A DNA stretch of 25,078 nt from a virus: the UHGV virus genome UHGV-1753993; one strand, 5' to 3'. Numbering within the stretch: the stretch's first letter is position 1; every line of letters starts with the position of its first letter. Shown here piece after piece: positions 1-19,407 of the stretch. Made by a program: the position numbers and the translations under genes. Under the pieces are notes generated by a model that saw nothing but the letters and a program-made list of their open reading frames with translations, ran no database searches and was not told the DNA's origin.

Positions 1-36
1 ACTGTATCGTAGCGAACAGTTTACAGCAGAACTTGA

Positions 37-70
37 AAGAGCATCGGTTTTCAACCGATGCTCTTCTTTT
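37..70 (+). terminator. intrinsic-terminator-like hairpin (13-bp stem AAGAGCATCGGTT / AACCGATGCTCTT, 3-nt loop) followed by CTTTTT
   Basis: Perfect inverted repeat read directly from sequence, T-run at 66-70; presumably ends an upstream + strand gene lying outside the window. Confidence 0.5.
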
Positions 71-87
71 TGTGCGTATTGCTGCCT

Positions 88-198
88 GATATATAATATG
101 TCAATAAATTTCACATACAAAAGTCTTTTCGCTTATGAAAACTACTCAACTCTGGTTTGAACGCCAGCAGTCAATCGCGGGGGGGCTCTTCGTGACAC
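88..198 (+). repeat. Family 5' module copy 1: putative promoter, leader ORF MKTTQLWFERQQSIAGG and G7 tract (179-185)
   Basis: About 110 bp nearly identical to the reverse complement of 5232-5344 and about 75 bp identical to the reverse complement of 1727-1798. Confidence 0.8.
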
Positions 199-913
199 TA
201 TTATCAGCGGCACTATCAACAAAGCAGATGGTTCACTACTTGAAGCTGCATATGCAACTATGCAAGAAGTCGAATGCTATGATGCTGACACTGGTGAATT
301 CTTAGCAGGCTCGCCTATTACAGTGCAGTCAAATGGCGTGCCAACATATAAGTTGACAATTCCTGCAAACAGGCTTGGTGCAGGTGCATTGTCAATTTGT
401 TCAGTGTATCTTGATAATGTCAGCATAAATGACTGTCTACGTTATGGCACTGGCTCCACTTTATATTGCTACGCAGGTCAAGGCGAGACACTTGATAATG
501 TCAATTTGACATGTGGTGATGCACTTGCATGCTTGCCTTGGATTCATGAAATTCATAGAGGTGATTCAGAGACAAATGAGCAACGTGTAGCAATTGTGCT
601 TGATGGCATTAAATCGTCTTGCACAGATGAAGACATTCAGCTACTTGCATCTACATTGTCGCACCCATTTGAATCATTTGGAAATGATAAAGTATTTGCA
701 GGCAAGCCTGCGTACTATGACAACTGCTTTGCTGAATGGCTAATGCTAAATGATTTTCAAGCAGGCAACATGGTCGATGCTTCTGTCACTAACTGCATTT
801 TGCTTATAGCAAATGACCCTGTAGTTGGTGTGGACATCTTGACTACTCTTGGATACATCACATCAGCGTTCACGTTCAACATGTATGACATGACAAACTG
901 GAATATGCTGTAA
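135..913 (+). CDS. Variable family protein, member 1; leader ORF (ATG 135) and body ORF (260-913 in track) offset by -1 at the G7 tract
   Basis: ATG at 135 encodes MKTTQLWFERQQSIAGG; body frame opens just upstream of the G-run as ..GGALRDT.., matching in-frame member 4595-5296 (..SIAGVALRDT..); one extra G or a -1 shift joins them; body shares CLPWIHE and AEWLMLNDF motifs with other members. Confidence 0.55.
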
Positions 914-931
914 TGAACTGCAAATGCACAC

Positions 932-963
932 AAAAAGACTCAGCAATATTGCTGAGTCTTTTT
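932..963. terminator. Bidirectional terminator: 22-nt perfect palindrome GACTCAGCAATATTGCTGAGTC flanked by A5 and T5
   Basis: Read directly; lies between convergent family genes (135-913 on + and 1790-about 1000 on -). Confidence 0.65.
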
Positions 964-1206
964 GTGTGCACTGTGACGCGCTTAATTGATGCATTCTGAG
1001 TGTAACATAGTCTGGAAATGACAGACTATTGCATGCATTGTTTAGATACTGTGTGATGTCATTTGCTGTAGGACCAGTACAGAATATCAATACATGCGAT
1101 GAATGCGCAGTGTTAATAGACTGCTGACGTAAATAGTCATTAACTTGTGCCCACTCAAGCACTGAATAGGTGCCTGAACCTGATATATCATACATTGATG
1201 CATCGC

Positions 1207-1790
1207 CTATCCATAGTGTGTTAGGGAATGCTTCGTTAATATGCGACAGCGTTTCTGCAACAGTTTGCCAGTCTGCTCGAAGTGCTGATTGTGTATTGTT
1301 TGCAATGTTATACTATACAATACTACTGCATGCATATTATCTTCATATTGTGCAGCTTCATATATCCACGGCAAGCATACAGAAGTTCCACCACACTGCA
1401 GTGATATGTCATATGAATTGCCATCGCTAACATTCGTGAGTGTGCCGCTACAGGCAGTGCCGTAATCTAATGCGCCCCATTCAGGGTCATCTGATTCAGT
1501 CTCGTGTGATACGGTAGCAAATAGTTGCAGAGCAAGTTCAGATGTGTCTGGTGACAAGCCTTTAAGCGTCATTTGAAATGTGCAATCACCTGACATGACA
1601 GGCAACATCATTGAACCAAGCAATGTGTTAGATGACATATCATATGCCTCTATGCGCAAAGGCAATGGTATATCAATGTACAGAGGCTCAGATTCACCAG
1701 CACAATAGATAGCGCAGTTAAGTGTTGTATCACGAAGAGCCCCCCCGCGATTGACTGCTGGCGTTCAAACCAGAGTTGAGTAGTTTTCAT
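1207..1790 (-). pseudogene. Variable family member 3, multiply frame-disrupted (C7 tract at 1740-1746; second frame change near 1313-1340)
   Basis: ATG at 1790 gives MKTTQLWFERQQSIAGG; body ORF 1207-1665 is in the -1 frame (..GGALRDTTLN..CLPWIYE..HAVVL); conserved C-terminal motifs (ETLSHINEAF, VLEWAQVNDY) continue in a third frame (track ORF 863-1195) that reads through the 932-963 terminator with no stop. Confidence 0.45.
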
Positions 1791-1798
1791 AAGCGAAA
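1727..1798 (-). repeat. Family 5' module copy 3 (leader + C7/G7 tract)
   Basis: Reverse complement is identical to 131-198 apart from one base after the tract. Confidence 0.8.
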
Positions 1799-1883
1799 GA
1801 GCTGTTAAAAGTTTGTGAAAATGTTTACAAATTATTTATCAACTAAGTGCAAAATCTGTAAGTATATAGTTTTAATATACATC

Positions 1884-1924
1884 AAAAAAAAAACTCCACT
1901 GAGAATTCAGTGGAGTTTTTTTTT
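1884..1924. terminator. Bidirectional intrinsic terminator: A10, 9-bp stem CTCCACTGA / TCAGTGGAG, 4-nt loop, T9
   Basis: Read directly; immediately downstream of the stop of minus-strand gene 1945-2574. Confidence 0.75.
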
Positions 1925-1944
1925 GATGCTTCTAATGACAACTG

Positions 1945-2574
1945 TCAATAAATGCCAACTATGACATGACCACCAAGTCTATTGTTGATAGCTGTGCAAA
2001 TTGCATCAGCATCTTCATATTGCAAATTTGCAAACATAATATGTTCTGGTCCAGGTGAAGTTACACTGCCACTATTCATATGCAATTGGCGCCATTGTTC
2101 AAACATTGCAATTGCATCATCTTGGTAATCAAATCCGCCAACAAGATATGCATCAGGCGCGTATTGCCTCACATATGTTGTGGTGCCAAACTCTTCACCA
2201 AGTGCTGCTGCACCATATTCATCGCAGTCACTAATTCGAATTTGATTGCCATTTGGCAAATACTTGTTAGGATTTGCAGGATAAAACCATGGTAGCACAC
2301 CCAGTTTGTTGACACATATGTCAATGTTGTTTTTTGATGCAGGCTCACCAAATGTTACCAAACATGAGCCATTGCCCATCATGACAGTGTTTTCATGCAT
2401 GCCAACAACATATTTGGTGCCTTTTGGCTCATATGTGCTGAATGTCCATAAGCCTGTTTCAGCATCTGATTGCACTTGGTTGCTAATGTAGCCATCAACT
2501 GACCACATATTGACTGCTACAGATGGAATGTGAGCAACTTGTTCTGAGTCATAATCTCTGATGTAGCCAGACAC
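1945..2574 (-). CDS. Hypothetical protein, distant homolog of the variable family (shares LPWFY and FEQWRQLHMNSG-type motifs); start uncertain
   Basis: Track ORF (209 aa; listed start is GTG). A possible leader ATG at 2645 (MQIPRNWGGG) runs into the C11/G11 tract at 2616-2626 and is -1 out of frame with the body. Confidence 0.6.
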   Translation of the reverse strand: MSGYIRDYDSEQVAHIPSVAVNMWSVDGYISNQVQSDAETGLWTFSTYEPKGTKYVVGMHENTVMMGNGSCLVTFGEPASKNNIDICVNKLGVLPWFYPANPNKYLPNGNQIRISDCDEYGAAALGEEFGTTTYVRQYAPDAYLVGGFDYQDDAIAMFEQWRQLHMNSGSVTSPGPEHIMFANLQYEDADAICTAINNRLGGHVIVGIY

Positions 2575-2615
2575 TTCTTCTACGAATGTAGGTCCAGTTT
2601 GGAGGGCTTGTTGTG

Positions 2616-2626
2616 CCCCCCCCCCC
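2616..2626. repeat. Homopolymer C11 (G11 on the minus-strand mRNA), with adjacent AGTT forming an inverted-repeat arm
   Basis: Read directly; partner arm AACTGGGGGGGG at 2914-2925. Confidence 0.9.
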
Positions 2627-2650
2627 AGTTACGAGGGATTTGCATATGAA

Positions 2651-2836
2651 TTGAGTTTTTGAAATGAGTTGAGTTTTGATGCAAGATGCAAAAACTTTTG
2701 AGTTTTGATGCAAGATGCAAAACTTTTGAGTTTTGATGCAAGATGCAAAACTTTTGAGTTTTGATGCAAGATGCAAAACAACTAAGATGTTGTTTTGATG
2801 CAAGATGCAAAACAACTAAGATGTTGTTTTGATATG
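2651..2836. repeat. Tandem direct-repeat array: 3 units of about 28 bp (TTTTGATGCAAGATGCAAAACTTTTGAG) and 2 units of 34 bp (..AAAACAACTAAGATGTTG), plus partial units
   Basis: Read directly; each unit contains the internal duplication GATGCAA-GATGCAA; no spacers, so not a CRISPR array. Confidence 0.9.
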
Positions 2837-2913
2837 TACATATGGGCAGTCAAAATATATAAACAAACAATTTAATTTTTGAAAAACTCATAAGTTTTAT
2901 GACATTCAAATTG

Positions 2914-2925
2914 AACTGGGGGGGG
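2914..2925. repeat. AACT + homopolymer G8 (2918-2925); inverted partner of 2616-2630
   Basis: Read directly. Confidence 0.85.
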
Positions 2926-3034
2926 TCACATATCTGGCTCAATCTCTTGTTATAACGTAGGTGACATTGCATTCGATGAAAAGTTTGCAGTGTTGCTTTC
3001 ATGTCACATTGCATAACTTAAAACATCGAAACAT

Positions 3035-3463
3035 ATGGCAGTTCAAACACGTTCGGTACTCAAAACGTACTTTGAAACCGGAGATAAACCCACCTCAGCA
3101 CAATTTGGCGACCTCATTGATAGTGCGTTGATGGCTCGATATATTTGGGAGACTGCATCAACTTTTGCAGCAATGGGCAGCACAGTATATATGTCAAATG
3201 CTACTGCAGCGCAAACAATAGATATGCAAGCAGTAGAACTTGGTGAAAGCTTTGTATTCAATAGAGTTGGCGAAGCAGCTGGAATTAATTTGCTGCCAAC
3301 ATTTTCTGGCAGTGGAATTTCAAGACGTTTTGCAGCTAACTATTATGATGTATCTGCAGATTCACCAGGTGTAATGTCATATGCTGTATTGATGACAAAT
3401 ATGAGTCAAGAATTGCTGACATTAAAAGTCGCTCTTATCAACCGCGCTTTATACAACAACTAG
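3035..3463 (+). CDS. Hypothetical protein with conserved N-terminus MAVQTR.VLKTYFETGDKPT.AQFGDLIDS (tandem paralog A)
   Basis: Track ORF with ATG start; N-terminal 30 aa nearly identical to 3541-3951 at protein level but diverged at DNA level. Confidence 0.7.
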   Translation: MAVQTRSVLKTYFETGDKPTSAQFGDLIDSALMARYIWETASTFAAMGSTVYMSNATAAQTIDMQAVELGESFVFNRVGEAAGINLLPTFSGSGISRRFAANYYDVSADSPGVMSYAVLMTNMSQELLTLKVALINRALYNN

Positions 3464-3540
3464 CAGACATACTTGAATGATGAAATTGTTCGAGCTTGTC
3501 TGCAATACAATAACAGACAAACTTCAAACAATTTCATACT

Positions 3541-3951
3541 ATGGCTGTACAAACAAGAAATGTTCTCAAGACATATTTCGAGACAGGCGATAAGCCAACT
3601 GCTGCTCAATTTGGTGATTTGATTGATAGCATATTTGCTGCTAAGTTTATGATGGTATCAAGTACCAGCATTAATGCTGTGCCAAATACATTGTACAGCA
3701 TTAATGCTGGTACATCTACCGTGACAATTAATGCAAATGCGCTTGAACGCGGTGAATCATTTATAGTTGACCGTGGCACTAATGCAATTTATGCAAATGC
3801 TGACGTTGACTTTGTGCACAACAACATGGTTATGTACTCAAAAGGATATGCAAATGTCAGTGCGCCGCAAGATGATTGCATAATGTCGTACACTGCATTA
3901 CTGTGTAATGACTATGTGTTGCTTGTCAATAGGGCATACTATAGCATATAG
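3541..3951 (+). CDS. Hypothetical protein, tandem paralog B of 3035-3463
   Basis: Track ORF with ATG start; shared N-terminal domain. Confidence 0.7.
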   Translation: MAVQTRNVLKTYFETGDKPTAAQFGDLIDSIFAAKFMMVSSTSINAVPNTLYSINAGTSTVTINANALERGESFIVDRGTNAIYANADVDFVHNNMVMYSKGYANVSAPQDDCIMSYTALLCNDYVLLVNRAYYSI

Positions 3952-3975
3952 ATGTCTAAAATTGCCAAACAGCAC

Positions 3976-4010
3976 AAAAAATGCTCCACTGAGATTTCTC
4001 AGTGGAGCAT
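3976..4010. terminator. Terminator hairpin (14-bp stem ATGCTCCACTGAGA / TCTCAGTGGAGCAT) with A-run on the + side (T-run for the minus-strand transcript)
   Basis: Read directly; between convergent genes 3541-3951 (+) and 4036-4559 (-); stem core CTCCACTGAG is shared with the 1884-1924 terminator. Confidence 0.65.
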
Positions 4011-4035
4011 TGCTTATATGTGATGCATCTGTCAG

Positions 4036-4559
4036 TTAGCTGACTTTCTTTGCATTCTTAAGTATGATTGACACGATATCTCCATTGTTAATTTTGACAG
4101 ATGGATTTGACATTGGCAATGTAAGCTTATCACCAACGCCTAATGGATATTGCCATGCCATAGAAGTTAACAGTATGGGATTACCACCAGGGCTTGTGTT
4201 GTTAATGTTGGCATACACATTGATGTTGTAAACGTTGCCAGTACCACGGCCATCTGCTGCATAACAGCCAAAGCCAATTTTTGCAGCAAAGTTTGAGTAG
4301 TCATAAGCTTTTGGCATCATTAACGCACCAATGGCGTAAGTTTCACCACCGCGGCATTCCATCATTTTGATAGGAAAGCCTGACGTTGGTATGTTAACTG
4401 TAACATTGTCAAGCGATATTGTACCTTGTATCGCCATTGTTTCAGTAGTGCCAAAGTTGTACAATGAAGCGTCACCAATAACAAGCTGCAGGTAGACTAA
4501 TTTAGAGCCCCCCCCGCTAGCACTTGTTGACGCTCAAACCAAAATTGTGGAGTTTTCAT
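4036..4559 (-). CDS. Variable family member 4; leader MKTPQFWFERQQVLAGG (ATG 4559) offset by -1 from the body at the C8/G8 tract (4508-4515)
   Basis: Leader frame stops 3 codons after the tract; body frame opens at the tract (SGGGSKLVYLQ..) and continues to the stop at 4036; body is G/N-rich. Confidence 0.5.
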
Positions 4560-4594
4560 ATGCTATGTGTTTGAATATTGTAAGATATGTACAC

Positions 4595-5296
4595 TTAGCC
4601 AAGTGTTGTTTTATCTGTGATGAACACATGAAATATGTCAGATAGTGTTTTCACAATTATAGCGCCCTCATATATTGGCGAAACATAAGAAGCATTAGCA
4701 ATAGACCATATGCCGACATGTGTCAATTTTGCAGATAAGCTATTGCCAACTCTAAAATTAGCAGCCAAGCTATTTGCAGCTATGTTAACTGACACATTGA
4801 CATTAGATGCTACTGATGTATTGCAAATTGTTGACAGTTTAATTGCCACTGGCAACGCAGATTCAAGCATTGCGGTGCAAATGCATGTATTGCCACTGTT
4901 AGTTATTGTTACTTCGCATGATTTGAACGCTTCAATATTGACATTTAGTGTGTTGTTAGCAATATCTGCGCCATATATAAGTGTAAATGCTGCAGATGAC
5001 CAAGACATATCTGCAGCATCAGGCGTGTCAATAAGATAAAATTGTGCGTCTTTTGTTGAGCCGACTAATTGCTTATAGTCATCACCAGTTATGTAAAATG
5101 TGATGCCATCACCATTATTGCTTGTGTACAAGCCTCTTTGAAGTGTTCGCCCTGTTTCAATACAGTGTAAATAGCAAGTTAGTCCATTAACAATGTTATC
5201 AGCATTGTCACGCACGTATATGTGCACGCCTGTGTCACGAAGAGCCACCCCCGCGATTGACTGCTGGCGTTCAAACCAGAGTTGAGTAGTTTTCAT
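4595..5296 (-). CDS. Variable family member 2, intact in-frame copy (233 aa)
   Basis: Track ORF with ATG start; leader MKTTQLWFERQQSIAG then VALRDT..; tract is GGGGGTGG (T-interrupted), giving a continuous frame. Confidence 0.75.
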   Translation of the reverse strand: MKTTQLWFERQQSIAGVALRDTGVHIYVRDNADNIVNGLTCYLHCIETGRTLQRGLYTSNNGDGITFYITGDDYKQLVGSTKDAQFYLIDTPDAADMSWSSAAFTLIYGADIANNTLNVNIEAFKSCEVTITNSGNTCICTAMLESALPVAIKLSTICNTSVASNVNVSVNIAANSLAANFRVGNSLSAKLTHVGIWSIANASYVSPIYEGAIIVKTLSDIFHVFITDKTTLG

Positions 5297-5344
5297 AAGC
5301 GAAAAGACTTTTTGTATGTGAAATTTATTGACATATTATATATC
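5232..5344 (-). repeat. Family 5' module copy 2 (promoter + leader + interrupted G tract)
   Basis: Reverse complement nearly identical to 88-198 (differences: A5 vs A4 upstream of the ATG; GGGGGTGG vs GGGGGGG). Confidence 0.85.
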
Positions 5345-5416
5345 AAATCAGTGCAAATTTGATAAATTTGTAGTACAATTATCATATATCAATATAGTAT
5401 ACAAACCTCTACAACA

Positions 5417-5728
5417 ATGAATATAAACGCATTCAAAGCAATTGAAAAACAACTCAAGCATCTAAAATTTTATGACAGAATAAATCTGTCTCATCTTGAT
5501 ATTCATAGCAGCGTTAACAATGCACAAGTTAAGTTAATAAGCTGTCAATACATGGGTTGCCTTGGCTCGCCAAAAGAACTTCGGTTCGCAGTTAAACGAA
5601 CTGATATGCAGGCAGCGCCAACATCATGGTATCACTATTTAGCAGTGCCAGAATTGTTCTCACAAGATGCAATCGAACAAATTAAAGCAACAATTAAAGT
5701 AGCTATATCTGCAAAAACTCAGCATTAA
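5417..5728 (+). CDS. Hypothetical protein (103 aa)
   Basis: Track ORF with ATG start; start region CTCTACAACAATGAA shared with 5751. Confidence 0.6.
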   Translation: MNINAFKAIEKQLKHLKFYDRINLSHLDIHSSVNNAQVKLISCQYMGCLGSPKELRFAVKRTDMQAAPTSWYHYLAVPELFSQDAIEQIKATIKVAISAKTQH

Positions 5729-5750
5729 ACAACTCAAAATCTCTACAACA

Positions 5751-6230
5751 ATGAACATCAACGACATTAACAAAGAACTTCTTAAAATCTTCTTAGAGAA
5801 GCATGGAGAAGTTCGTCTTTCTAAGAAACATGACTTTCTTGCAATAGAACGCCAACGTACAGACACTCATGTTATTGTAGGCGTATCCTGCAATTTCTTT
5901 GACGATTGTCATACGACCATATCGCAATTTGAAATTCCTGTAAAAGACTGGGACAACCGCAGCAAGTTCATTGCAATGAAAGACTATGTTCGTCAGCCAA
6001 TTGTGCATGAGGACACTGATATGTTTCCGTGGCTGCATTGTATCAAATTTGACATGTCAGTCAAAGCATTCGAATATGTTCCGATTTCTGCACAGTCAAA
6101 TGCAATAGAGCTTGAATTGCTCAACAATCCGCCCTACAAATGGTGCAATAAAGAGCCTGAATTCGATGACTTTGATGACGACTTTGCAAGTCTTGAAGAT
6201 TGCATGGGATATGATGACGATAATGAATAA
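5751..6230 (+). CDS. Hypothetical protein with acidic C-terminus (159 aa)
   Basis: Track ORF with ATG start. Confidence 0.65.
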   Translation: MNINDINKELLKIFLEKHGEVRLSKKHDFLAIERQRTDTHVIVGVSCNFFDDCHTTISQFEIPVKDWDNRSKFIAMKDYVRQPIVHEDTDMFPWLHCIKFDMSVKAFEYVPISAQSNAIELELLNNPPYKWCNKEPEFDDFDDDFASLEDCMGYDDDNE

Positions 6231-6242
6231 AACGCGACTATC

Positions 6243-6533
6243 ATGACACCAGATTATACAGTAGCATTCAGTATTTGCGAAAACAACAAACAAGTCGCAT
6301 ATCGCAAAGCAGAAGTAGGTCCAGAACAATTTGCAGTCATGTCATCTATGCAGATTGGTGCAATCATCAATTTAACAGACAGTGTTAATGTACCTGCAGA
6401 ACGTCGTCAAGAAATGTCATCGCTGTGCGGCGCATATCGCATTATTGACATACAGTACAGTGTAAAAGTAGAAACAATATTGAGTACTTTTGCAGCTTGT
6501 CAGCATTGTGTCATCAAACTTGTGCGAGCATGA
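6243..6533 (+). CDS. Hypothetical protein (96 aa)
   Basis: Track ORF; ATG 12 nt after the preceding stop. Confidence 0.55.
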   Translation: MTPDYTVAFSICENNKQVAYRKAEVGPEQFAVMSSMQIGAIINLTDSVNVPAERRQEMSSLCGAYRIIDIQYSVKVETILSTFAACQHCVIKLVRA

Positions 6534-6670
6534 AATTGAACAAGTTGTTCAAATTGCGTCAACGTTTCATAACTTGTTCATTGATTCTAATGTTCGCATG
6601 GAACTGTGCAATGCTGCAAACAATGATATCGATTCTGTAGTCAAGCGAATTCTTAACATCTCAATGTAAC

Positions 6671-6967
6671 ATGCAAACTAATATGCAAACTAACACATTA
6701 TATCTTGCAAGGCTATCTAATGGTCAAGACATTGGCATAACAGAACTTGCACAGCCAGTATTTCCATGTTTTGTGTATGATGACACATCAAAGGTCTATC
6801 TTACACAAGCAGAACTTGAACAGCAGCCTCATGCAAGACATTGTCATGCAATACCAGATGCACATGCATTACATGTCAGTGGTGTTGGTTATGTACGAGG
6901 CTGGACTGAATTATTTGCCGCATGCAAATCATTAAGAACTGACATCATAAAACTTGAGCGTATATGA
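6671..6967 (+). CDS. Hypothetical protein, paralog of 7291-7551
   Basis: Track ORF; shared motifs ITEL.QPV..C and GYVR.W.EL with 7291-7551. Confidence 0.6.
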   Translation: MQTNMQTNTLYLARLSNGQDIGITELAQPVFPCFVYDDTSKVYLTQAELEQQPHARHCHAIPDAHALHVSGVGYVRGWTELFAACKSLRTDIIKLERI

Positions 6968-7260
6968 AAAACTTTCTGACAATTGTTGCATGCATTATGT
7001 TCATGCTGTTAGGCTATATTCTGAATGGCTGCATTATTATGAACTTCTGGGAGTGGTTTGTAATGCCTGTGTGGCCAGCATTGACTGCGTTATCGCTTAA
7101 GCATGCAATTGGGATATCATTTGTACTGACATTGTTCAAGAATCATGACACAATCAACAAGTTCAGTGAATTGCCGATTGCTGCGCAGTTCTTTATGTAT
7201 TGCATCATGCAGCCTGCAATAATTATGTTCTTGGGTTTTATGGTGCATTGCTTTTTGTAG
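6964..7260 (+). CDS. Small hydrophobic membrane protein (about 3 predicted TM segments)
   Basis: Track ORF; ATGA start/stop overlap with the preceding gene; sequence dominated by hydrophobic runs. Confidence 0.6.
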   Translation: MKNFLTIVACIMFMLLGYILNGCIIMNFWEWFVMPVWPALTALSLKHAIGISFVLTLFKNHDTINKFSELPIAAQFFMYCIMQPAIIMFLGFMVHCFL

Positions 7261-7290
7261 ATATCTTAACAATATCATAAATTGCAAGCA

Positions 7291-7551
7291 ATGGACAAAC
7301 AAGTACGATGCATATTGCGCAATGGCAAGAAAATCACAGTGACTGAATTGTCAGAGCCTGTGTATCATTGCGTATACACAAGTAACAACGCAGAAGTTTG
7401 GCTAACTGCCAAGCAAATCAAAGATGCTGCAGGTGCAGTCAAGTATGTTGACAGCAAGCCATACATGTTGCATGTCTTTATGACAGGCTACGTTCGTGAC
7501 TGGTCTGAATTGCATAAGCGATATGATATTGTAGAACTACAAAACGTCTAA
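7291..7551 (+). CDS. Hypothetical protein, paralog of 6671-6967
   Basis: Track ORF 7282-7551 starts at TTG; first in-frame ATG is 7291. Confidence 0.6.
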   Translation: MDKQVRCILRNGKKITVTELSEPVYHCVYTSNNAEVWLTAKQIKDAAGAVKYVDSKPYMLHVFMTGYVRDWSELHKRYDIVELQNV

Positions 7552-7555
7552 GAAT

Positions 7556-7918
7556 ATGAAACGATTTACATTGTTGTTCATTGCAATTGCATGCATTGCA
7601 TGTGCTGCAGTTAAGCCAACATATGTGTCAACTGTCACTTTGCAACCACGAGAATTTGTTGATAGTGTATGCAATGCACATAATACGCATTTGCCTGAAA
7701 TTGATGTGTGGCATGCTCAAGCGACTGATTCTACTTGTCTTGTTGCAAGAGTAGATACGACATTCAAACATGCTCGATACATTACTACTTCAGCGCCATA
7801 CATTAAGTCAAATGGCAAAGTCGACAACAAACGCTGGTATTTGATTGTTGCGTCAGTTTATCCTTATAGAGATTCTGTGCGTGTAGTGATGCGAATTGAG
7901 CCTCAATCAAATGAATGA
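7556..7918 (+). CDS. Putative secreted protein or lipoprotein (N-terminal signal MKRFTLLFIAIACIACAA with lipobox-like IAC)
   Basis: Track ORF; hydrophobic N-terminus followed by Cys, read by eye. Confidence 0.55.
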   Translation: MKRFTLLFIAIACIACAAVKPTYVSTVTLQPREFVDSVCNAHNTHLPEIDVWHAQATDSTCLVARVDTTFKHARYITTSAPYIKSNGKVDNKRWYLIVASVYPYRDSVRVVMRIEPQSNE

Positions 7919-8079
7919 CAATGCAATCTTGCTGGTTAAGCCCATCAGGTCAAGTCACCTACTGTGACTTTGCTGAACATAGCAAAACTGCTGACATATT
8001 GTTGCAAAAGCTCAAACCAGAGTTGTTGACGCATACAATATGCCAGTTAGTCTTGCGCATGACCAGTTGCAGAACTTGA
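7915..8079 (+). CDS. Small ORF (54 aa), not in ORF track
   Basis: ATG overlaps the preceding stop (ATGA); fills an otherwise gene-free gap; found by manual translation. Confidence 0.3.
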   Translation: MTMQSCWLSPSGQVTYCDFAEHSKTADILLQKLKPELLTHTICQLVLRMTSCRT

Positions 8080-8186
8080 GCAATTATGCTACATTCGATA
8101 TTACAGCTGTGGAAGGCACTACGAAATGCACAAAGGCGCAACGTGAAGCAATGTTTGACTTGACAAGGCACTGGCATGAGCAATAA
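8040..8186 (+). CDS. Small ORF (48 aa), not in ORF track
   Basis: Manual translation; ends 15 nt before the next gene; overlaps the 7915-8079 ORF in another frame. Confidence 0.25.
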   Translation: MPVSLAHDQLQNLSNYATFDITAVEGTTKCTKAQREAMFDLTRHWHEQ

Positions 8187-8201
8187 GATACATTATCTGA
8201 T

Positions 8202-8816
8202 ATGAAACATACAACATATGGACTGGGCTACATCCAGTCACCTAAAGATGACAGAGACTTGCGCTTTGACGCAAAAACTGATTTGCCACTTGTGTACAAG
8301 TTGGCTCAACTTCAAGTAGAAGACCAAGGCAGTACATCAATGTGTGCAGCTTACACAGCAGCAACAATGATTGACTGGTGGTCTTCTGTGCTGTCTATGC
8401 AAGGCAAGCTTGACATCAAAGCATTGTATGAGCGTCGTTCAAATAAGCCTCAAGAGGGCATGATTCCGCGTGACGTCTTTAAGCTGCTCAAAGCACAGCC
8501 AATCAAGATGTCAAAGGGCTCAGAACAATCGCCGATAACTGCATACAGACGTTGCTACACAATTGATGAAGTCAAATCTGCTATTGTAGCAAATGGGCCT
8601 GTATTTGTTGGCATGCTCGTAAAAGACATTGAAGCTGAGCATTTCTGGAAAGGCGATGGCAATTTTGGTGGTCATGCAGTGTCAATTGTCGGCTATACAA
8701 AAGACTCATTCATCATCAAGAATAGCTGGGGTATATCTTGGGGTGATTCCGGCTACACTACAATGCCCTTTGAAGATTTTTCAGCAATCATTGAAGCTTG
8801 GACCATTTTGAGATGA
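8202..8816 (+). CDS. Papain-like (C1-family-like) cysteine peptidase
   Basis: Catalytic-triad signatures by eye: QGSTSMCAAYT (Cys), GGHAVSIVGY (His), NSWGISWGDSGY (Asn/Trp); no signal peptide. Confidence 0.65.
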   Translation: MKHTTYGLGYIQSPKDDRDLRFDAKTDLPLVYKLAQLQVEDQGSTSMCAAYTAATMIDWWSSVLSMQGKLDIKALYERRSNKPQEGMIPRDVFKLLKAQPIKMSKGSEQSPITAYRRCYTIDEVKSAIVANGPVFVGMLVKDIEAEHFWKGDGNFGGHAVSIVGYTKDSFIIKNSWGISWGDSGYTTMPFEDFSAIIEAWTILR

Positions 8817-14150: not shown

Positions 14151-14194
14151 TGCAAATATACATATATTGTCAACAAACAAACATAAAAAAAGAT

Positions 14195-14512
14195 ATGCTG
14201 CAACTCAAACATAAAGCCGAAATGGCTCGAGCACTTGCAAACAATCCACTCGTTGTAGTGAAGTTCAGTGCGCCATGGTGTGTGCCGTGTCAAGGTTATG
14301 CGCCAATTTTCGAGTCAACTGAAAAGAAATTCAATGGCAAGGTGACATTTGCTGAAGTGAATGTTGAAGAGTGCGATGAACTTGATAGCACTCACAATGT
14401 TCGTTCAGTACCAACGACAATTATCTTTCGTGATTGCATTGAAGTTGGCCGTGCAACTGGTGCATTGTCAGCTATTGCACTTGAACAACTGATTGTCGAC
14501 AATATGCAATAA
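14195..14512 (+). CDS. Thioredoxin
   Basis: Active site WCVPC, cis-Pro loop VPT, about 105 aa; start re-set to ATG 14195 (track start 14150 lies in an AT-rich leader). Confidence 0.85.
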   Translation: MLQLKHKAEMARALANNPLVVVKFSAPWCVPCQGYAPIFESTEKKFNGKVTFAEVNVEECDELDSTHNVRSVPTTIIFRDCIEVGRATGALSAIALEQLIVDNMQ

Positions 14513-14536
14513 CACACTACAAGCAGTTCATACGCT

Positions 14537-14971
14537 ATGGGCAAGTCGATATTTGACAATGAATGGCTATCTACGGAACTTGAGCGGTTTGAAATCAAAT
14601 ACGACAAGCTTTCAATCAATGACGACACTGTAGTAGCATCAGCAACATCTACAATAGAACAGTTTTTGCAAAAGTCTTCGTATCACAGGTACATTAGAAT
14701 AAGACTTCGCAAATACAAGTTCATTGAGCCAACAAAGTACAATGAGTGCATCGCAAAATGTGCCGCGTTAACAAAAAGCGCTTTGCAGCTTATCAATGTG
14801 TTTGATGCAATCAACACATACTATGAGCTTGACACAAAGCTTTGTTGGGACCAGTTGTCATACACAAACAAGCTCATCATAGCTAAAGACATGCTTGAAT
14901 CACAGGGTAATGACGCTTTGCTAAAATTTGTTATGCAGCAAAAAGCAGCTAATGACATGCTTGACCAATGA
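14537..14971 (+). CDS. Hypothetical protein (144 aa)
   Basis: Track ORF with ATG start. Confidence 0.6.
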   Translation: MGKSIFDNEWLSTELERFEIKYDKLSINDDTVVASATSTIEQFLQKSSYHRYIRIRLRKYKFIEPTKYNECIAKCAALTKSALQLINVFDAINTYYELDTKLCWDQLSYTNKLIIAKDMLESQGNDALLKFVMQQKAANDMLDQ

Positions 14972-15966
14972 AAGATTCACTGAACAGAGGCTCAGCTGAG
15001 CTGAAATCAGCTCAAGCTGCAATTAAACAGCAAGTCAATGCAAAAGACGTGACATTTCAGCACTTCTTTCGTAATGCATTTATTGGACTGCTGTCTGATT
15101 TGTATGCTCGTCTGAATATGCCGACATACATGCTGAGCACTGGTGACCAACGATATTGGTCGGGCGAACTTGTTGGCAAAGGCTCAAGTCCAGTTGGCAA
15201 TACACCAACAAATTCACTTGAAAATGCATTTGTTGACGCGAAAAACTTTGTTCAAACTGTGCCAAGATGCGTTGTTGAAATAGAGTCGCCTCGAATCAAC
15301 AAACAAGCGCTTGGCATGCAAGATACACAGATTCGTCTGATTGCTACAATTGACAGTGTACCTGTCGCATTGTATAGCACAATGAGACGAATACCAGTAG
15401 ATTTTGCTGTCAATGTGCAAGTATTTTCAACAGATTGGTTAACTGCGCTTGAGACTTACGAGTATTTGCTTAGCAAGCTGTATCAGTTGAATATGTATGG
15501 TTTTGTCTGGGCAGGTACCATGCATGGTGCATCATATGAATTCGATGTGTCTTCTATGGATGCTCAGCATGCAATTGTGCATGGCAAAGAAGACATTGAC
15601 ACAGTCATTAAGCTGCCATTGACACTGCACTTACAATATCCTGCAATCAATTCTGGTGATAACATTTGGGCTGGCGATGACATCATCACAGACTACGAGC
15701 ACAACATTGATATTGATAGTGATGATTCTGCACTTGACTTGAACATCACTTTTGGTGGCAACTATGATGAAGCCAGAATATCATTGCCAAGCAAATCAGG
15801 TTCGGCTAATGCAGGCTCTGCAATGTCTGACAGTAGACTCATAAGCATTGTCGGTTCATCTGGCAATGTTGGTCAAGCTGCTGGTAGTGGCAGCAATGCA
15901 AATCTTGCAAGCGTATCAGATGGCAATACAGGTTGTCAGAATGGCGCATGTCATCTTGAACATTGA
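14968..15966 (+). CDS. Hypothetical protein with Gly/Ser-rich C-terminus (332 aa)
   Basis: Track ORF; ATGA overlap with the upstream gene. Confidence 0.65.
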   Translation: MKDSLNRGSAELKSAQAAIKQQVNAKDVTFQHFFRNAFIGLLSDLYARLNMPTYMLSTGDQRYWSGELVGKGSSPVGNTPTNSLENAFVDAKNFVQTVPRCVVEIESPRINKQALGMQDTQIRLIATIDSVPVALYSTMRRIPVDFAVNVQVFSTDWLTALETYEYLLSKLYQLNMYGFVWAGTMHGASYEFDVSSMDAQHAIVHGKEDIDTVIKLPLTLHLQYPAINSGDNIWAGDDIITDYEHNIDIDSDDSALDLNITFGGNYDEARISLPSKSGSANAGSAMSDSRLISIVGSSGNVGQAAGSGSNANLASVSDGNTGCQNGACHLEH

Positions 15967-16514
15967 TGCGTATGAAATATAACACCATCCTCAACAATAT
16001 CAAATTGGCTTTATGGCCATTTGGTGTCATTCGACGTCTAAACAAGCTTGATGCAGAAGCTAACAAGTGGCATCAATATTTGCTTGACTATCTGAATGAC
16101 CCTGAACATGAGTACTTTTTGACATTTTTGAAGAACAGCGGCTTTGCATTGTTCAATGAGCAGCGATGCTTCATTGTGCATACTCAGCTTCCTGCAGAAG
16201 TCATTGCAACAATACAAGGTACAGAATTTGAAGCACTTGACTCAGTTGCAATTGTTGAGCACATCATGCATGAACGCATGGAACCAGTCTTCAATCAACT
16301 TGTGCAAAACAATCTGCTTGATGTCGTAACACTTCGACATAACTACACTGGCAATGGCATCATTAGAACAGTGATGTCAAATGTTGCTGAACTCGAATAT
16401 CTTGCATATGCAGAAGAACAGCCTTTACGATTGTTAAGATGTTCTGCTGCAATATGGAAGATTCTGTTAAGTGCATTGTGCTTAGCAGCATTAGCATTAG
16501 CAATCATCTCATAA
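15966..16514 (+). CDS. Hypothetical protein with hydrophobic C-terminal tail
   Basis: Track ORF 15963-16514 starts at TTG; ATG at 15966 overlaps the upstream stop (TGATG). Confidence 0.55.
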   Translation: MRMKYNTILNNIKLALWPFGVIRRLNKLDAEANKWHQYLLDYLNDPEHEYFLTFLKNSGFALFNEQRCFIVHTQLPAEVIATIQGTEFEALDSVAIVEHIMHERMEPVFNQLVQNNLLDVVTLRHNYTGNGIIRTVMSNVAELEYLAYAEEQPLRLLRCSAAIWKILLSALCLAALALAIIS

Positions 16515-16528
16515 CACAATTTATTCGT

Positions 16529-17074
16529 ATGGCAAAGAAAAATGCTGTTGCAGCAAAGCCTGCAACTGAACTCAAAGACATGACAATGGAGCAGCTGGAA
16601 GCACTCAAAAAGTCGCTCAGTGAAGCTCGAAAAGAACTCGAAGACAAATCGCAGTCAATGCAGATGATTGTCACGACTGATGGCGAATTGCTCAAGTTTG
16701 TTGCACGTAATGTGTGCGAACTTGTTTTGCCGCAACTTGAGTTTGATATGCGACTTATGCGTGATGTTGTCGCATTTGCTGCATGGGCTACGGACGCTGC
16801 AAAAGGACGACGCACCATGGGCATCTTCGAGTTCAAGTACATTGTTCGTGCTGTATCGACGACGAAGTTCAAGGGCGCTCAGGTTGCTGCAGCACTTGAT
16901 TCACTCAACAATCTGCTTGAGGCACCTGCAGCAGAAGTACAGAAGTTCGATGAGCAGTATCGTGAAAACGCCACTGCACTTGACGCATGCTTGCAGGAAA
17001 TTGACAAGCGCAAGCAAGCTGAGCTAGCTGAAAAGACTGCTGAAGCTGAATCGCAGGAAGCAGACGCAAACTAA
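16529..17074 (+). CDS. Hypothetical helical, acidic protein with G/C-ending codon usage
   Basis: Track ORF 16439-17074 re-set to ATG 16529 (MAKKNAVAAKPA); followed by a strong terminator. Confidence 0.6.
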   Translation: MAKKNAVAAKPATELKDMTMEQLEALKKSLSEARKELEDKSQSMQMIVTTDGELLKFVARNVCELVLPQLEFDMRLMRDVVAFAAWATDAAKGRRTMGIFEFKYIVRAVSTTKFKGAQVAAALDSLNNLLEAPAAEVQKFDEQYRENATALDACLQEIDKRKQAELAEKTAEAESQEADAN

Positions 17075-17119
17075 AATGACATTGACATAGTGTCATTGAT
17101 TTTAAGGGTTAGTAAAGTG

Positions 17120-17151
17120 CAAGCAGGCTGCAATTGCAGCCTGCTTGTTTT
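17120..17151 (+). terminator. Intrinsic terminator: 28-nt perfect palindrome CAAGCAGGCTGCAATTGCAGCCTGCTTG followed by TTTT
   Basis: Read directly. Confidence 0.75.
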
Positions 17152-17275
17152 GTGTACAATGACGATATTTTTAGCAACACAAAGTGCAAGTACGCACTTT
17201 ATGTTGTACAATGATGATATTTTAACAACATATGTTGTGCAAAAGCTCAATACATGTTGTACAATATATTCATAT
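17151..17275 (+). promoter_or_regulatory. Repeated 30-bp elements containing TGT(T)GTACAAT (17151-17180, 17203-17232, partial 17255-17275) upstream of gene 17295
   Basis: Direct repeats read directly; motif core TTGTACAA is palindromic; function inferred. Confidence 0.4.
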
Positions 17276-17294
17276 ATGATAAAACAATACGAAT

Positions 17295-18677
17295 ATGCAC
17301 AATGATTTGATTATAGCGCAATTAAATGCTTTGCAGCAGCAATATGAAATTGTGTTTGATGTTGATTGCATTGCATGGCTTCGAAACAGATGCTCAACAT
17401 TTATAGGCATTCCACTGCCATATAATGATTACGTTATTTGTGTGCATCCAATTGTGCGACAAACTGTCGTAGTTGACATAACAAATGCAACTGAACACGA
17501 GCTATTTGAATTGGAAGAGTACATTGCAATGATTCATGCATTGTTGCAATCATATGCACGACATCTGCATTCACAACGATGCAACACGGAGTTTGCTGCA
17601 GTAGATGCGCCCTATTCTGCAAAAACACATTTTGTGCCTGTAATACTTAAGCCTGCATATCCTGTACGAACACAAGACAAACCACGACAAGATAAGACAG
17701 ACATTCAAAGTAGAGAATGCTTTGCAATTGCTCGCATCATTGATGCAACAAAGCAGCATCAATACAAGGCGCATCTTATTGTAGATGATGCAGAAGTGCA
17801 TGACCCAAAACTTTTCGACAAAGATGTGCTATGCTGCTCAGTTGACTATGTGCAGCACTCAATTGACAAATATGGTGTGTTGTACATTGTATGCTCAGCA
17901 ATGAATGACTCGATGAGTCAGTCAGTCATCTACAAACAGCACAAGCAACTCATTGAATCATGGAAGGGCGACATTGTATGGCTATGGTATGATTTACGAC
18001 TCGTGCCGCACATTGCAAACTTTAGATTGCGCTGCAAAAAGATGACAGTTGTCACACAAGCACAGAACATGCATAATGCGTTGTCAATGCTGACAGAAAT
18101 CAATGTCAACACAATTCAGCATGCAAGACTGGAAGGCATTCCATTGTATGCATCACATAACGAAAAACGTTTAGCAAAATTGCAATCAGGCAAGTTGACT
18201 ACTGCAATGCCGATGGTTGCTTGGAATGACATGTGTGCTGAACGCAAACAAGAAGTCATTGATTTGCTTGGCTGCGCAGACATCGAAACTCATGTTGTCG
18301 GCAATATCGACATTGATATGCCACATGTCTATGATGGCACAATCAAGTATTTTGACATATTAACATACTTGTCGCAGTTCGACTTTGCATACATTGTGTG
18401 TGAAGAGAATATGAAACAATGCAACGCAATTACATTCAGAGCAACTGAATCAATGCTTGCAGGCTTGCCTTGTATGTACGTGAATAATTGTGTGTGTCCT
18501 GACTTTATCAAGTATCATAAAGTCGCACACATCAAAAATGCCAAGCATTGTGCAGAAGTCTTCAAGTCATTAAGTGTAGATGAACTTGATGAGCTTATGA
18601 CATTACAAGACAACTATCTCATTGAGTTGCATACAAACATTGTAACAGACTTTATCAAAATTATAAACTCACTGTAA
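17295..18677 (+). CDS. Hypothetical protein (460 aa); C-terminal region weakly resembles the GT-B glycosyltransferase nucleotide-sugar-binding motif
   Basis: Track ORF with ATG start; motif ..FRATESMLAGLPCMYV.. by eye only. Confidence 0.6.
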   Translation: MHNDLIIAQLNALQQQYEIVFDVDCIAWLRNRCSTFIGIPLPYNDYVICVHPIVRQTVVVDITNATEHELFELEEYIAMIHALLQSYARHLHSQRCNTEFAAVDAPYSAKTHFVPVILKPAYPVRTQDKPRQDKTDIQSRECFAIARIIDATKQHQYKAHLIVDDAEVHDPKLFDKDVLCCSVDYVQHSIDKYGVLYIVCSAMNDSMSQSVIYKQHKQLIESWKGDIVWLWYDLRLVPHIANFRLRCKKMTVVTQAQNMHNALSMLTEINVNTIQHARLEGIPLYASHNEKRLAKLQSGKLTTAMPMVAWNDMCAERKQEVIDLLGCADIETHVVGNIDIDMPHVYDGTIKYFDILTYLSQFDFAYIVCEENMKQCNAITFRATESMLAGLPCMYVNNCVCPDFIKYHKVAHIKNAKHCAEVFKSLSVDELDELMTLQDNYLIELHTNIVTDFIKIINSL

Positions 18678-18681
18678 GCAT

Positions 18682-19407
18682 ATGAAATGGCTAACTTGGT
18701 CTGAAACAAAGCGGTTTCAACGAAATCTCATATATCTTAAAATGGCTGAGCTTTGGTCATTAAATTCACATGCTCAGCGAGCAAAAGTTGGCGCATTGCT
18801 TGTAAAAGATGGTTGCATAATTTCAGATGGCTATAATGGCATGCCAACTGGTATGTCAAATTGTTGCGAACATGATACTTCAGCAGGCATCAAAACCAAC
18901 AAAGAAGTTTTGCATGCAGAATCAAACGCATTGATGAAGCTGTGCAAATATGGCAATGCGACCGCAAATGACGCAGTGCTGTATGTAACATACAGTCCAT
19001 GCATTGATTGCGCAAAGCTTATTTTGCAAGCAGGCGTTAAGCAAGTGCATTTTGTTGACTTGTATCATCACATAGATGGCTTGCGACTACTTAGTAGTGC
19101 TGGCATTGAGTTATATTGGTACCCAAGAAGCGCAGCAGATTATGAGGTTGCATGCAATCAAGTAGACTTTGATGATGCATTTCTTGCAAAGTGTGTCAAT
19201 ATCGTAGCAGTTAGTGACAATGTAGATGACATTGTGCATTGCAATTATGTGATATGCAATCTTGACGCAGCATTGTCATATGAGAAGATGCCAATGTATG
19301 ACACGTCATATGGTGTCATTGCAAATCACATCATAGATGAAGTACAATATCAACATGTAATAGATAATTGCAAAGCATATGAGCAAACTCTTCATTTTGA
19401 AATTTGA
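18682..19407 (+). CDS. dCMP deaminase-like (zinc-dependent cytidine/deoxycytidylate deaminase fold)
   Basis: Signature HAESNAL ... PCIDCAKLI read directly. Confidence 0.7.
   Translation: MKWLTWSETKRFQRNLIYLKMAELWSLNSHAQRAKVGALLVKDGCIISDGYNGMPTGMSNCCEHDTSAGIKTNKEVLHAESNALMKLCKYGNATANDAVLYVTYSPCIDCAKLILQAGVKQVHFVDLYHHIDGLRLLSSAGIELYWYPRSAADYEVACNQVDFDDAFLAKCVNIVAVSDNVDDIVHCNYVICNLDAALSYEKMPMYDTSYGVIANHIIDEVQYQHVIDNCKAYEQTLHFEI

Follow-up and report, generated by a model that had tools for sequence, protein, structure and literature searches.

Organization of the poly-G gene cluster

A stretch of 25,078 nucleotides (nt) from the viral genome UHGV-1753993, referred to here as the window, was analyzed. 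Close to its 5' end lies a cluster of small genes in which six loci, designated A to F, are headed by a repeated cassette made up of a short leader open reading frame (ORF) and a run of G residues, or an interrupted run in the case of F; the coordinates of these and the neighboring features are collected in Table 1. Five G/C runs of at least seven residues are present in the 25 kb, where 0.5 would be expected from shuffled sequences. All five fall within 179-4515, and every one of them is placed directly 3' of a short leader ORF (at 179, 1740, 2616, 2918 and 4508). Of the five long genes, F alone is in frame with its leader ATG; the other four (A, B, C and E) are not. The addition of one G to the tract would produce continuous leader-body proteins of 259 amino acids (aa) for A, 233 aa for C and 174 aa for E; it would also join the leader of B to its body, but a second frameshift near 1312 would remain in that gene.

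A previous, sequence-only reading of the window had proposed that a module of about 110 bp recurs here as its reverse complement at the head of several genes. Alignment recovered all of these copies. The repeat formed by 87-198 and 5232-5345 consists of two blocks, 87-122/5310-5345 and 119-183/5248-5312, which are each 100% complementary and are separated by a single indel in an A/T run; 127-217 is 90% complementary to 1708-1798 over 91 nt, and 131-185 is 75% complementary to 4509-4563 over 55 nt. This similarity is far above chance, and the module is found again in every related genome. The proposal of a multigene family with a common 5' module in both orientations and with diversified bodies was borne out. 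What it had overlooked is the hypermutable poly-G run that ends each copy and decides the reading frame, so that the module is more than a promoter with a leader: each copy is a short leader ORF (MKTTQLWFERQQSIA) running into a poly-G tract. The statement that each copy begins a gene holds for the copy at 5296, from which a continuous ORF runs on the minus strand (4595-5296), but not for those at 135, 1790 and 4559. There, the leader ORF ends after 56 codons in gene A, 46 in gene B and 20 in gene E, and the long bodies open in another frame, starting within or just past the G7, G7 and G8 tracts. The family with a conserved 5' end had been recognized correctly in outline, and the observation is both real and more interesting than had been described.

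Two kinds of cassette can be distinguished. Type 1 comprises an AT-rich promoter-like stretch, a 15-codon leader ORF (MKTTQLWFERQQSIA), the G tract, which is read as Gly codons, and the linker ALRD. Type 2 has the same build, with an M-x4-N-W leader followed by G7-11 and then AQQALQ, and heads two more loci, C and D; the tract follows the ATG after 15 codons in type 1 and after 7 codons in type 2. The cassettes are fused to differing and mostly unrelated bodies of 150-260 aa, which are beta-rich and have no start codon of their own at the fusion point. The leader of gene E is a diverged form, type 1b, which is separated from type 1 by four synonymous changes in the consecutive codons 9-12 (E-R-Q-Q) and by four replacements. 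Since codons 9-12 differ only synonymously between the two forms, the leader is translated, as a conserved peptide.

Promoter activity of the segment 87-134 is putative, and is suggested by its position and by its repetition. A sigma-70 scan found no site in 87-134 or in 5297-5345 and no excess of sites in the window overall; a Bacteroidota-type -7/-33 reading of the cassette was made by eye only. An Rfam scan of the whole window returned no match, and a search of the cluster representatives with the two leaders concatenated found none carrying the leaders. RNA folding of the five cassette transcripts revealed no shared structure, with fold z-scores of -0.6 to -2.5. In the minimum free energy folds of A (110-200) and B (1720-1815) the start codon is enclosed by a pairing between GCGGGGGG in the tract and a pyrimidine stretch, CUUUUCGC, that immediately precedes the AUG; neither E nor F has this pairing, and its z-scores do not reach significance.

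Table 1. Features of the poly-G gene cluster in the window. Frame is given relative to the leader ATG.
Feature	Position	Strand	Remarks
Terminator-like hairpin (13-bp stem and T run)	37-65	+	Closes the structural (BACON-like) block that lies upstream; immediately precedes cassette copy 1
Gene A, promoter-like AT-rich half of type-1 cassette	87-134	+	100% inverted repeat with 5310-5345 / 5297-5312; intergenic, after terminator
Gene A, leader ORF	135-178	+	Leader ATG 135; MKTTQLWFERQQSI, then Ala and Gly codons entering the tract
Gene A, poly-G tract (G7)	179-185	+	Out of frame; leader and body would be fused at G8 or G5
Gene A, body of 242 aa (ALRDTIISG...NML)	185-913	+	-1 frame relative to leader
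Perfect 23+23 nt palindrome, bidirectional terminator	925-970		Between convergent genes A and B
Gene B, body, homologue of A	1004-1740	-	Second frameshift near 1312-1316
Gene B, poly-G tract (G7; C7 on + strand)	1740-1746	-	Out of frame, needs +1
Gene B, type-1 cassette: leader ORF and diverged promoter-like part	1747-1853	-	Leader ATG 1790
Gene C, body of 222 aa	1945-2615	-	Unrelated to A, B, E and F
Gene C, poly-G tract (G11; C11 on + strand)	2616-2626	-	Out of frame; in frame at 9 or 12; most mutable tract
Gene C, type-2 leader (MQIPRNW...)	2627-2645	-	Leader ATG 2645
Tandem 28/34-nt repeats, about 5 copies, core GTTTTGATGCAAGATGCAAAAC	2669-2833		Occupy the interval between type-2 cassettes C and D, which are divergent
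Gene D, type-2 cassette: leader MTFKLNW and G8 (2918-2925)	2899-2925	+	Leader ATG 2899; no long body
Two small genes	3035-3463 and 3541-3951	+	Common 30-aa N-terminus MAVQTR.VLKTYFETGDKPT.AQFGDLIDS, unrelated C-terminal parts
Bidirectional terminator hairpin	3980-4011		Between the 3541 gene and gene E
Gene E, body of 156 aa	4036-4507	-	
Gene E, poly-G tract (G8; C8 on + strand)	4508-4515	-	Out of frame; in frame at 9 or 6
Gene E, type-1b leader MKTPQFWFERQQVLA	4516-4563	-	Leader ATG 4559; diverged module copy
Gene F, 233 aa including leader	4595-5296	-	Leader ATG 5296; only member in frame in the window
Gene F, interrupted tract GGGGGTGG (coding strand), 8 nt	5245-5252	-	In frame
Gene F, promoter-like half of type-1 cassette	5297-5345	-	Inverted-repeat blocks

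Variation in tract length among related genomes

The tracts were compared across about ten related gut-metagenome genomes that are approximately 95% identical to the window (cited by their labels, L001 and so on, where they need to be told apart). Orthologous tracts range in length from 6 to 11. The gene A tract is G7 in seven lineages, the window included, and G6 in two. In the relatives, the gene C tract measures 11, 10, 10, 9, 11, 8 and 7, that of gene D 7, 8, 9 and 10, and gene E has G7, G8, TG7 or AG7. Gene F occurs with the tract alleles G7, G5TGG, G6TGG and G11A, and the relatives with G7, G6TGG and G11A are out of frame. Two pairs of genomes isolate this variation particularly well: over 15,130 nt the window differs from L017 in nothing but the gene C tract (C11 versus C10), and L023 and L024, which come from different samples, are identical over 6,774 nt except for the same tract (TG8 versus TG7). 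Apart from the tracts, the alignments contain essentially no uncompensated 1-nt indels in coding sequence. Repeat-length polymorphism among near-identical genomes is thus far above the background indel rate, and it affects homopolymers that lie within the 5' coding region, as G7-G11 runs after the leader ORFs.

Natural ON and OFF alleles of these genes both exist. The in-frame allele of A, P0030, encodes 259 aa, which is the exact length predicted for G8. In-frame, uninterrupted alleles of F are P0044, P0045 and P0064, and P0031 is also counted as in frame for this gene; the tracts of P0030 and P0044 were deduced from the protein sequence. The in-frame A and F proteins start MKTTQLWFERQQSIAGGALRDT and read ...SIAGGALRDT... 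across the junction. Body E is in frame behind a type-2 leader in P0049 and L001, and gene C is in frame with a G9 tract in L005. For A and F all three phases occur in public data, with the G6-type and G7-type out-of-frame forms in the majority. Sequencing artefact was considered as a source of these differences and rejected, because independent Illumina assemblies, produced in different studies and with different assemblers (MEGAHIT, SPAdes and IMG), repeatedly give the same lengths.

Two further tracts were noticed in the relatives. At 12515-12522 of L001 (minus strand) a lipoprotein-like ORF of 333 aa reads MIKKMICIAVCAWMCASCEKND, then G8, then FDEP..., and is in frame. Its poly-G tract immediately follows the signal peptide, and the design recurs here with a leader of a third kind. 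In the replication-gene region, L003 and L004 differ in a tract (C7ACCCCC at 4615-4621 in L003 versus C6 at 4366-4371 in L004) located 8-15 nt before the ATG of a gene of 291 aa; this tract may act on translation initiation rather than on the frame.

Relatedness and selection of the gene bodies

The bodies had been described in the sequence-only reading as divergent but related to one another. This is true of A and B, which share 26% identity over 222 aa (blastp, E = 1.5e-9) and to which the CLPWI, TLSH and EW..ND motifs belong, but all other pairs have no pairwise similarity. A, B and F have a single motif in common, ALRDT, and this belongs to the cassette, of which it forms the 3' end. The idea that all of the bodies share a fold is unsupported, with an hhalign profile-profile probability of 0.1% for the A and F families. 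Scans of all bodies against Pfam (E up to 5) and PHROGs returned no usable match, and AlphaFold2 models were of low confidence and too poor for a fold search, with a predicted local distance difference test (pLDDT) score of 52.6 for A (5 sequences) and 35.9 for F (11 sequences). Body E has weak matches, significant library-wide (E of 2.6e-8 to 1e-5), to repeat units of large proteins; the proteins matched carry CARDB, DUF11/DUF7507, PKD-like and type IX secretion system (T9SS) sorting domains, suggestive of an immunoglobulin-like (Ig-like) beta-sandwich for body E. This similarity is the one hint towards the receptor-binding or surface role that the sequence-only reading had suggested for the proteins.

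The body ORFs are full length in every genome. The ratio of nonsynonymous to synonymous substitution rates (dN/dS) is 0.19 for A (8 genomes), 0.31 for F and 0.09 for E; by this measure the bodies are under purifying selection and are functional. We also considered the segment between the tract and the first internal ATG, in which 6 of 6 variable sites of E are synonymous in the body frame and A has 8 synonymous versus 4 replacement changes. This segment evolves as coding sequence in the body frame, which implies that translation enters the body at the tract, and it rules out the internal start codons as the true starts.

A proposed role for tract length in setting the reading frame

We propose that the cluster is a phase-variable (contingency) gene family carried on a mobile promoter-leader-polyG cassette, in which the length of the DNA tract sets the reading frame, and we assign this interpretation a probability of roughly 0.6. 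It may best be read as a new variant of the poly-G switching known in Campylobacter phages. In this scheme translation that starts at the leader ATG would reach a body only if the length of the tract brings that body into frame. Replication of the phage DNA would add or remove G residues by slipped-strand mispairing, each gene would switch on and off independently, reversibly and stochastically, and a phage population would give rise to virions or infections with different subsets of the proteins. Homologous recombination between cassette copies would further move, replace, delete and possibly invert the bodies. We infer that it is DNA slippage that sets expression. The proteins themselves may have a part in the interaction with the host, whether as Ig-like modules on the virion surface or as packaged effectors of the kind represented by the T4 internal proteins.

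Several observations weigh against this proposal. In-frame alleles make up 3 of the 36 DNA-based gene-by-lineage observations, where 12 would be expected under neutral three-state switching (binomial p = 5e-4); the tract counts share ancestry and gene conversion, and these observations are therefore not independent. Among the 30 observations of type-1 cassettes, 22 are in the 'one G short' frame and one is in frame. Gene E is strongly constrained (dN/dS 0.09), yet its type-1b copy is never seen in frame. The G7 tracts are stable, being identical in the four near-identical genomes L018-L021, and the F tract has expanded by 6 nt in L025 with its out-of-frame phase unchanged. These points fit decoding of the out-of-frame alleles by slippage of RNA polymerase or the ribosome; they also fit strong selection against constitutive expression.

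Were the out-of-frame alleles decoded, the tract would be a site of programmed recoding. The cassette would be deliberately one nt out of frame, the bodies would be made constitutively at a low level with the tract acting as an attenuator, and the DNA polymorphism would be a side effect. Either RNA polymerase would add or drop a G (transcriptional slippage), or the ribosome would slip on GGG codons, by -1 on G_GGG_GGG and by +1/-2 for the other class. Programmed frameshifting or slippage is known from dnaX, from insertion sequence (IS) elements and from the phage tail chaperone G/GT. As in dnaX-type -1 sites, G7 forms an exact X_XXY_YYZ heptamer in the leader frame (GCG GGG GGG, seen in A and B, in the relatives of F and in L003), which is thus slippery in the zero frame, with the downstream ORF in the -1 frame. 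The 22 type-1 observations noted above need exactly the shift that a -1 frameshift or one additional G would give. The strong purifying selection on bodies that are almost always out of frame, and the phase kept through the L025 expansion, also speak for recoding.

The tracts nevertheless depart from such sites in several respects, and we consider programmed recoding unlikely, if not to be dismissed lightly. The shift required is not constant: A occurs as G7 and G6 and E in 8-nt and 7-nt classes, and alleles needing +1 and alleles needing +2, that is, shifts in both directions, persist under the same selection. Tract length varies from 6 to 11, whereas recoding sites are normally fixed, and neither a conserved site and phase nor a conserved downstream stimulatory structure was found, with the bodies diverging from 14 nt past the tract. 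Alleles of A and F that are entirely in frame also occur, and evidently these are viable. Furthermore, G/C runs are poor sites of transcriptional slippage in the systems studied so far. A variant of this explanation, in which the tract is no on/off switch but an obligatory recoding site on a mobile cassette, or portable 'attenuator leader', that holds a set of unrelated genes out of frame with the one start codon they have, with slippage by RNA polymerase, by the ribosome or in the replicating DNA pool of one infected cell, seems to us unlikely too; the in-frame alleles would then be rare over-expressing variants. We know of no description of a portable attenuator leader for any virus of bacteria.

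Turnover and rearrangement of the cassettes

Comparison of the related genomes shows that the cassettes and their bodies are not fixed. Bodies B and C are absent in several genomes, and body E stands behind a type-2 leader in L001. The version of the cassette found at B also heads genes of L003 and L004 elsewhere in the genome, and these two relatives have different bodies behind the same cassette at the same locus, again elsewhere in the genome. Two extra type-2 cassettes are present in L025 and two extra genes in the cluster of L018, and L002 has lost one of the two small MAVQTR genes by recombination between their common 5' ends. In L004 an interrupted tract, GGGTGGG, is locked out of frame, and in L027 a transposase gene of the IS1595 family (319-1239) replaces the 5' half of gene F together with its cassette. 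Indels and replacements between close relatives are bounded by cassettes.

One contig points to an inversion. Aligned with the window at 87-1020 and 5232-7812, the 3,538-nt contig L013 has gene A and its own 3' flank joined via the cassette to the early-gene side, which is exactly the junction expected from inversion of approximately 200-5230. L013 is a single SPAdes contig with 5x coverage, and it may be chimeric, because its junction crosses a 110-bp repeat, which exceeds the usual k-mer in length. The order and orientation of the window are kept in every other genome that has sufficient flanking sequence, and no invertase or recombinase was matched by Pfam among the 20 window ORFs scanned, from which the small ORFs in 5417-8200 were left out. 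Taken together, the conserved order and the absence of an invertase from these ORFs indicate that inversion is at most an occasional by-product and not the switch. The earlier suggestion that the repeats mediate inversion or gene conversion between cassettes is therefore upheld for cassette shuffling, as seen in the presence or absence of B and C, in L003 versus L004 and in the exchanged leader of E in L001, with a single inversion-type junction beside it, but it does not extend to inversion as a means of switching.

These results bear on a recombinational switch in the manner of Mu G/Gin, P1 C/Cin or the shufflons, in which the inverted copies at 87-198 and 5232-5345 would be the arms of an invertible segment, or the cassettes would serve as donors for gene conversion. 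The inverted repeats of about 110 bp are near-identical and flank variable genes, as in those systems, and the L013 junction and the exchange of bodies behind cassettes in several genomes are in keeping with such a mechanism. We regard it as improbable all the same. In addition to the order kept in nearly all genomes, the low coverage of L013 and the lack of a site-specific invertase, adjacent and dedicated, among the ORFs scanned with Pfam, the repeats are here whole promoter-leader cassettes and not crossover sites inside one gene. Inversion would also leave the frame problem unchanged, because both arms carry their own promoter, leader and tract. It is still less probable, and indeed scarcely credible, that these are ordinary mobile cassettes of the promoter-early stem-loop (PeSL) type in a hyperplastic region, with cargo that is decaying or misassembled at homopolymers and G runs that have no regulatory role: T4-like phages are known to have terminator-promoter cassettes through which modules are shuffled (PMC2839356, PMC4122927), and the second frameshift of B outside a homopolymer, the locked tract of L004 and the IS element in L027 agree with this account, but it is contradicted by the same tract lengths in independent Illumina assemblies, by body ORFs that are full length everywhere with dN/dS of 0.09-0.31, by the position of the tracts exclusively right after leader ORFs and by the existence of in-frame alleles.

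Comparison with known systems

To our knowledge, Campylobacter phages are the only phages in which experiments have so far demonstrated phase variation by poly-G tracts. In the Campylobacter Fletchervirus phages two receptor-binding proteins are phase-variable via poly-G tracts (Sorensen 2021, Cell Rep 35:109214, as relayed in PMC8713573). The resemblance to the system proposed here is close: both are lytic, T4-related phages of the myovirus type, the poly-G tracts lie within genes, changes in their length switch expression and give mixed populations, and there are several switchable genes per genome. The present cluster differs in that the tract comes within a promoter-leader-tract cassette, repeated and mobile, which unrelated bodies share, in the placing of the tract 15 (type 1) or 7 (type 2) codons from the ATG, in belonging to a human gut lineage whose host is probably a member of the Bacteroidales and not Campylobacter, in that its proteins are small ORFans and not demonstrated receptor-binding proteins, and in that its consensus alleles are nearly always out of frame. 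Homopolymer contingency loci have also been proposed, only recently, in T2 and T4 (PMC12633550).

The contingency families of bacteria provide a second parallel. In Neisseria, the opa genes have CTCTT repeats in the leader-coding region. Campylobacter jejuni has genes with 5' poly-G tracts (PMC8713573, PMC9311878). Common to such families and to the cluster are many loci, each with its own promoter and a slippery repeat just after the start, and independent translational switching with most copies off; unlike them, the family described here would be encoded by a virus, and its members share only the 5' cassette and not the mature protein.

The cluster also has features of the PeSL cassettes of T4-like phages (Arbiol 2010, PMC2839356; Comeau 2014, PMC4122927), which are short repeated cassettes in hyperplastic regions between conserved blocks, with ORFan cargo and cassette-bounded replacements. 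Terminator hairpins likewise flank the units here (37-65, 925-970 and 3980-4011). In contrast to PeSLs, the repeat extends into coding sequence (leader, tract and linker) and the terminator lies outside it; no sigma-70 consensus promoter was detected, so that the repeated unit is not a sigma-70-like early promoter with a terminator stem-loop, and PeSLs are without a frame-switching element.

A further possible parallel is with the T4 internal proteins, which are diverse small proteins with only an N-terminal capsid targeting sequence in common (PMC3012670). The proteins of the cluster are similarly diverse and small, with only an N-terminal peptide of around 10-16 residues in common, and differ in the poly-G switch, of which there is none in the T4 internal-protein genes. 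The leader MKTTQLWFE resembles MKTYQEFIAE, which we take to be the T4 capsid targeting sequence. Targeting peptides of the T4 type are about 10 aa long and are removed by the prohead protease behind an (L/I)-x-E motif, the protein being packaged in the head; the putative counterpart in the leader is MKTTQLWFE|R. The replacement of the 16-residue leader by the 7-residue type-2 leader on body E of L001 argues against a strict targeting role.

If the phase-variable reading is correct, the strategy of the Campylobacter phages is also used in a prevalent, uncultivated lineage of human-gut phages of about 175 kb. The switch would be portable as a unit of promoter, leader and tract, which recombination attaches to unrelated genes, and would amount to a phage 'phasome' with at least 10 different bodies. 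This would be a cheap way to diversify the composition of virions or effectors against Bacteroidales hosts, which themselves have phase-varying surfaces. There are also practical consequences: gene callers fail to place the true 5' end of any of these genes, and the tract length given in an assembly is arbitrary. The marked surplus of out-of-frame alleles in genes subject to strong purifying selection presents a concrete puzzle as to how such genes are expressed.

Phage lineage, host and neighboring features

The window matches the ENA contig ERZ27261429:k119_91679. Its relatives at about 95% identity are two IMG/VR contigs of around 175 kb and many human-gut metagenome contigs; one homologue of F is indexed in 65 blocks of the assembly collection and was seen on 64 contigs. 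Megablast of positions 1-6000 and tblastn of protein A against 50,697 phage records gave no match. Genes for a gp32-like protein, a UvsW-like helicase and a dCMP deaminase make the genome distantly T4-like, and the helicase has relatives only at 31% identity or less, so that no cultured relative was found. On this evidence the phage is an uncultivated, T4-like phage of approximately 175 kb from the human gut, with the cluster lying in a hyperplastic region.

The host is probably a member of the Bacteroidales. This is indicated by the BACON-like repeat proteins encoded just upstream of the window, by the lack of a Shine-Dalgarno-like sequence, as judged by eye, upstream of any gene start examined, and by the IS1595-family element of L027, whose best genome match is an Alistipes metagenome-assembled genome (79%), followed by Dysgonomonas, Myroides and Prevotella. 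In L002, the region upstream of window position 1 (L002 13191-18863) holds three genes of 204, 199 and 1442 aa with a common N-terminal MAKP.W...P..G.GN...HTGR domain, a faint BACON match and Ig-like repeats, and these adjoin a 601-aa protein with a weak head-closure match. The poly-G cluster therefore sits at the border between a structural block and early-type small genes. On the early side, the first two genes share the start region AAAyCTCTACAACAATGAAyATmAACG (5403-5429 and 5737-5763).

Within the cluster, gene B is possibly a decaying copy. Its second frame change (1312-1316) is not in a homopolymer, and its last frame (863-1195) reads through the terminator at 925-970 into the 3' end of gene A. 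Cassette D is probably body-less and now serving the 3035 and 3541 genes: the ORFs that follow it are at most 39 aa at any tract length, and it lies 110 nt upstream of the 3035 gene. With their common N-terminus, these two MAVQTR genes constitute a second family with a shared 5' end in the cluster, in this case without a poly-G tract.

The tandem repeats between C and D could be regulator-binding sites or iterons. Their core, GTTTTGATGCAAGATGCAAAAC, holds GATGCAA twice, and the types and numbers of copies vary between genomes. At a tract length of 10 a gene caller reads straight across these repeats (2669-2833), resulting in a spurious 289-aa call in L017.

Elsewhere in the window, positions 18682-19407 and 20539-22095, together with 8202-8816, encode the dCMP deaminase, a protein with a weak GT47-like glycosyltransferase domain and a papain-like C1 peptidase; a link of the GT47-like protein to DNA modification is possible. 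In L003 a ribonucleotide-reductase-like ORF of 1093 aa (14167-17448) has an insertion that appears intein-like by eye.

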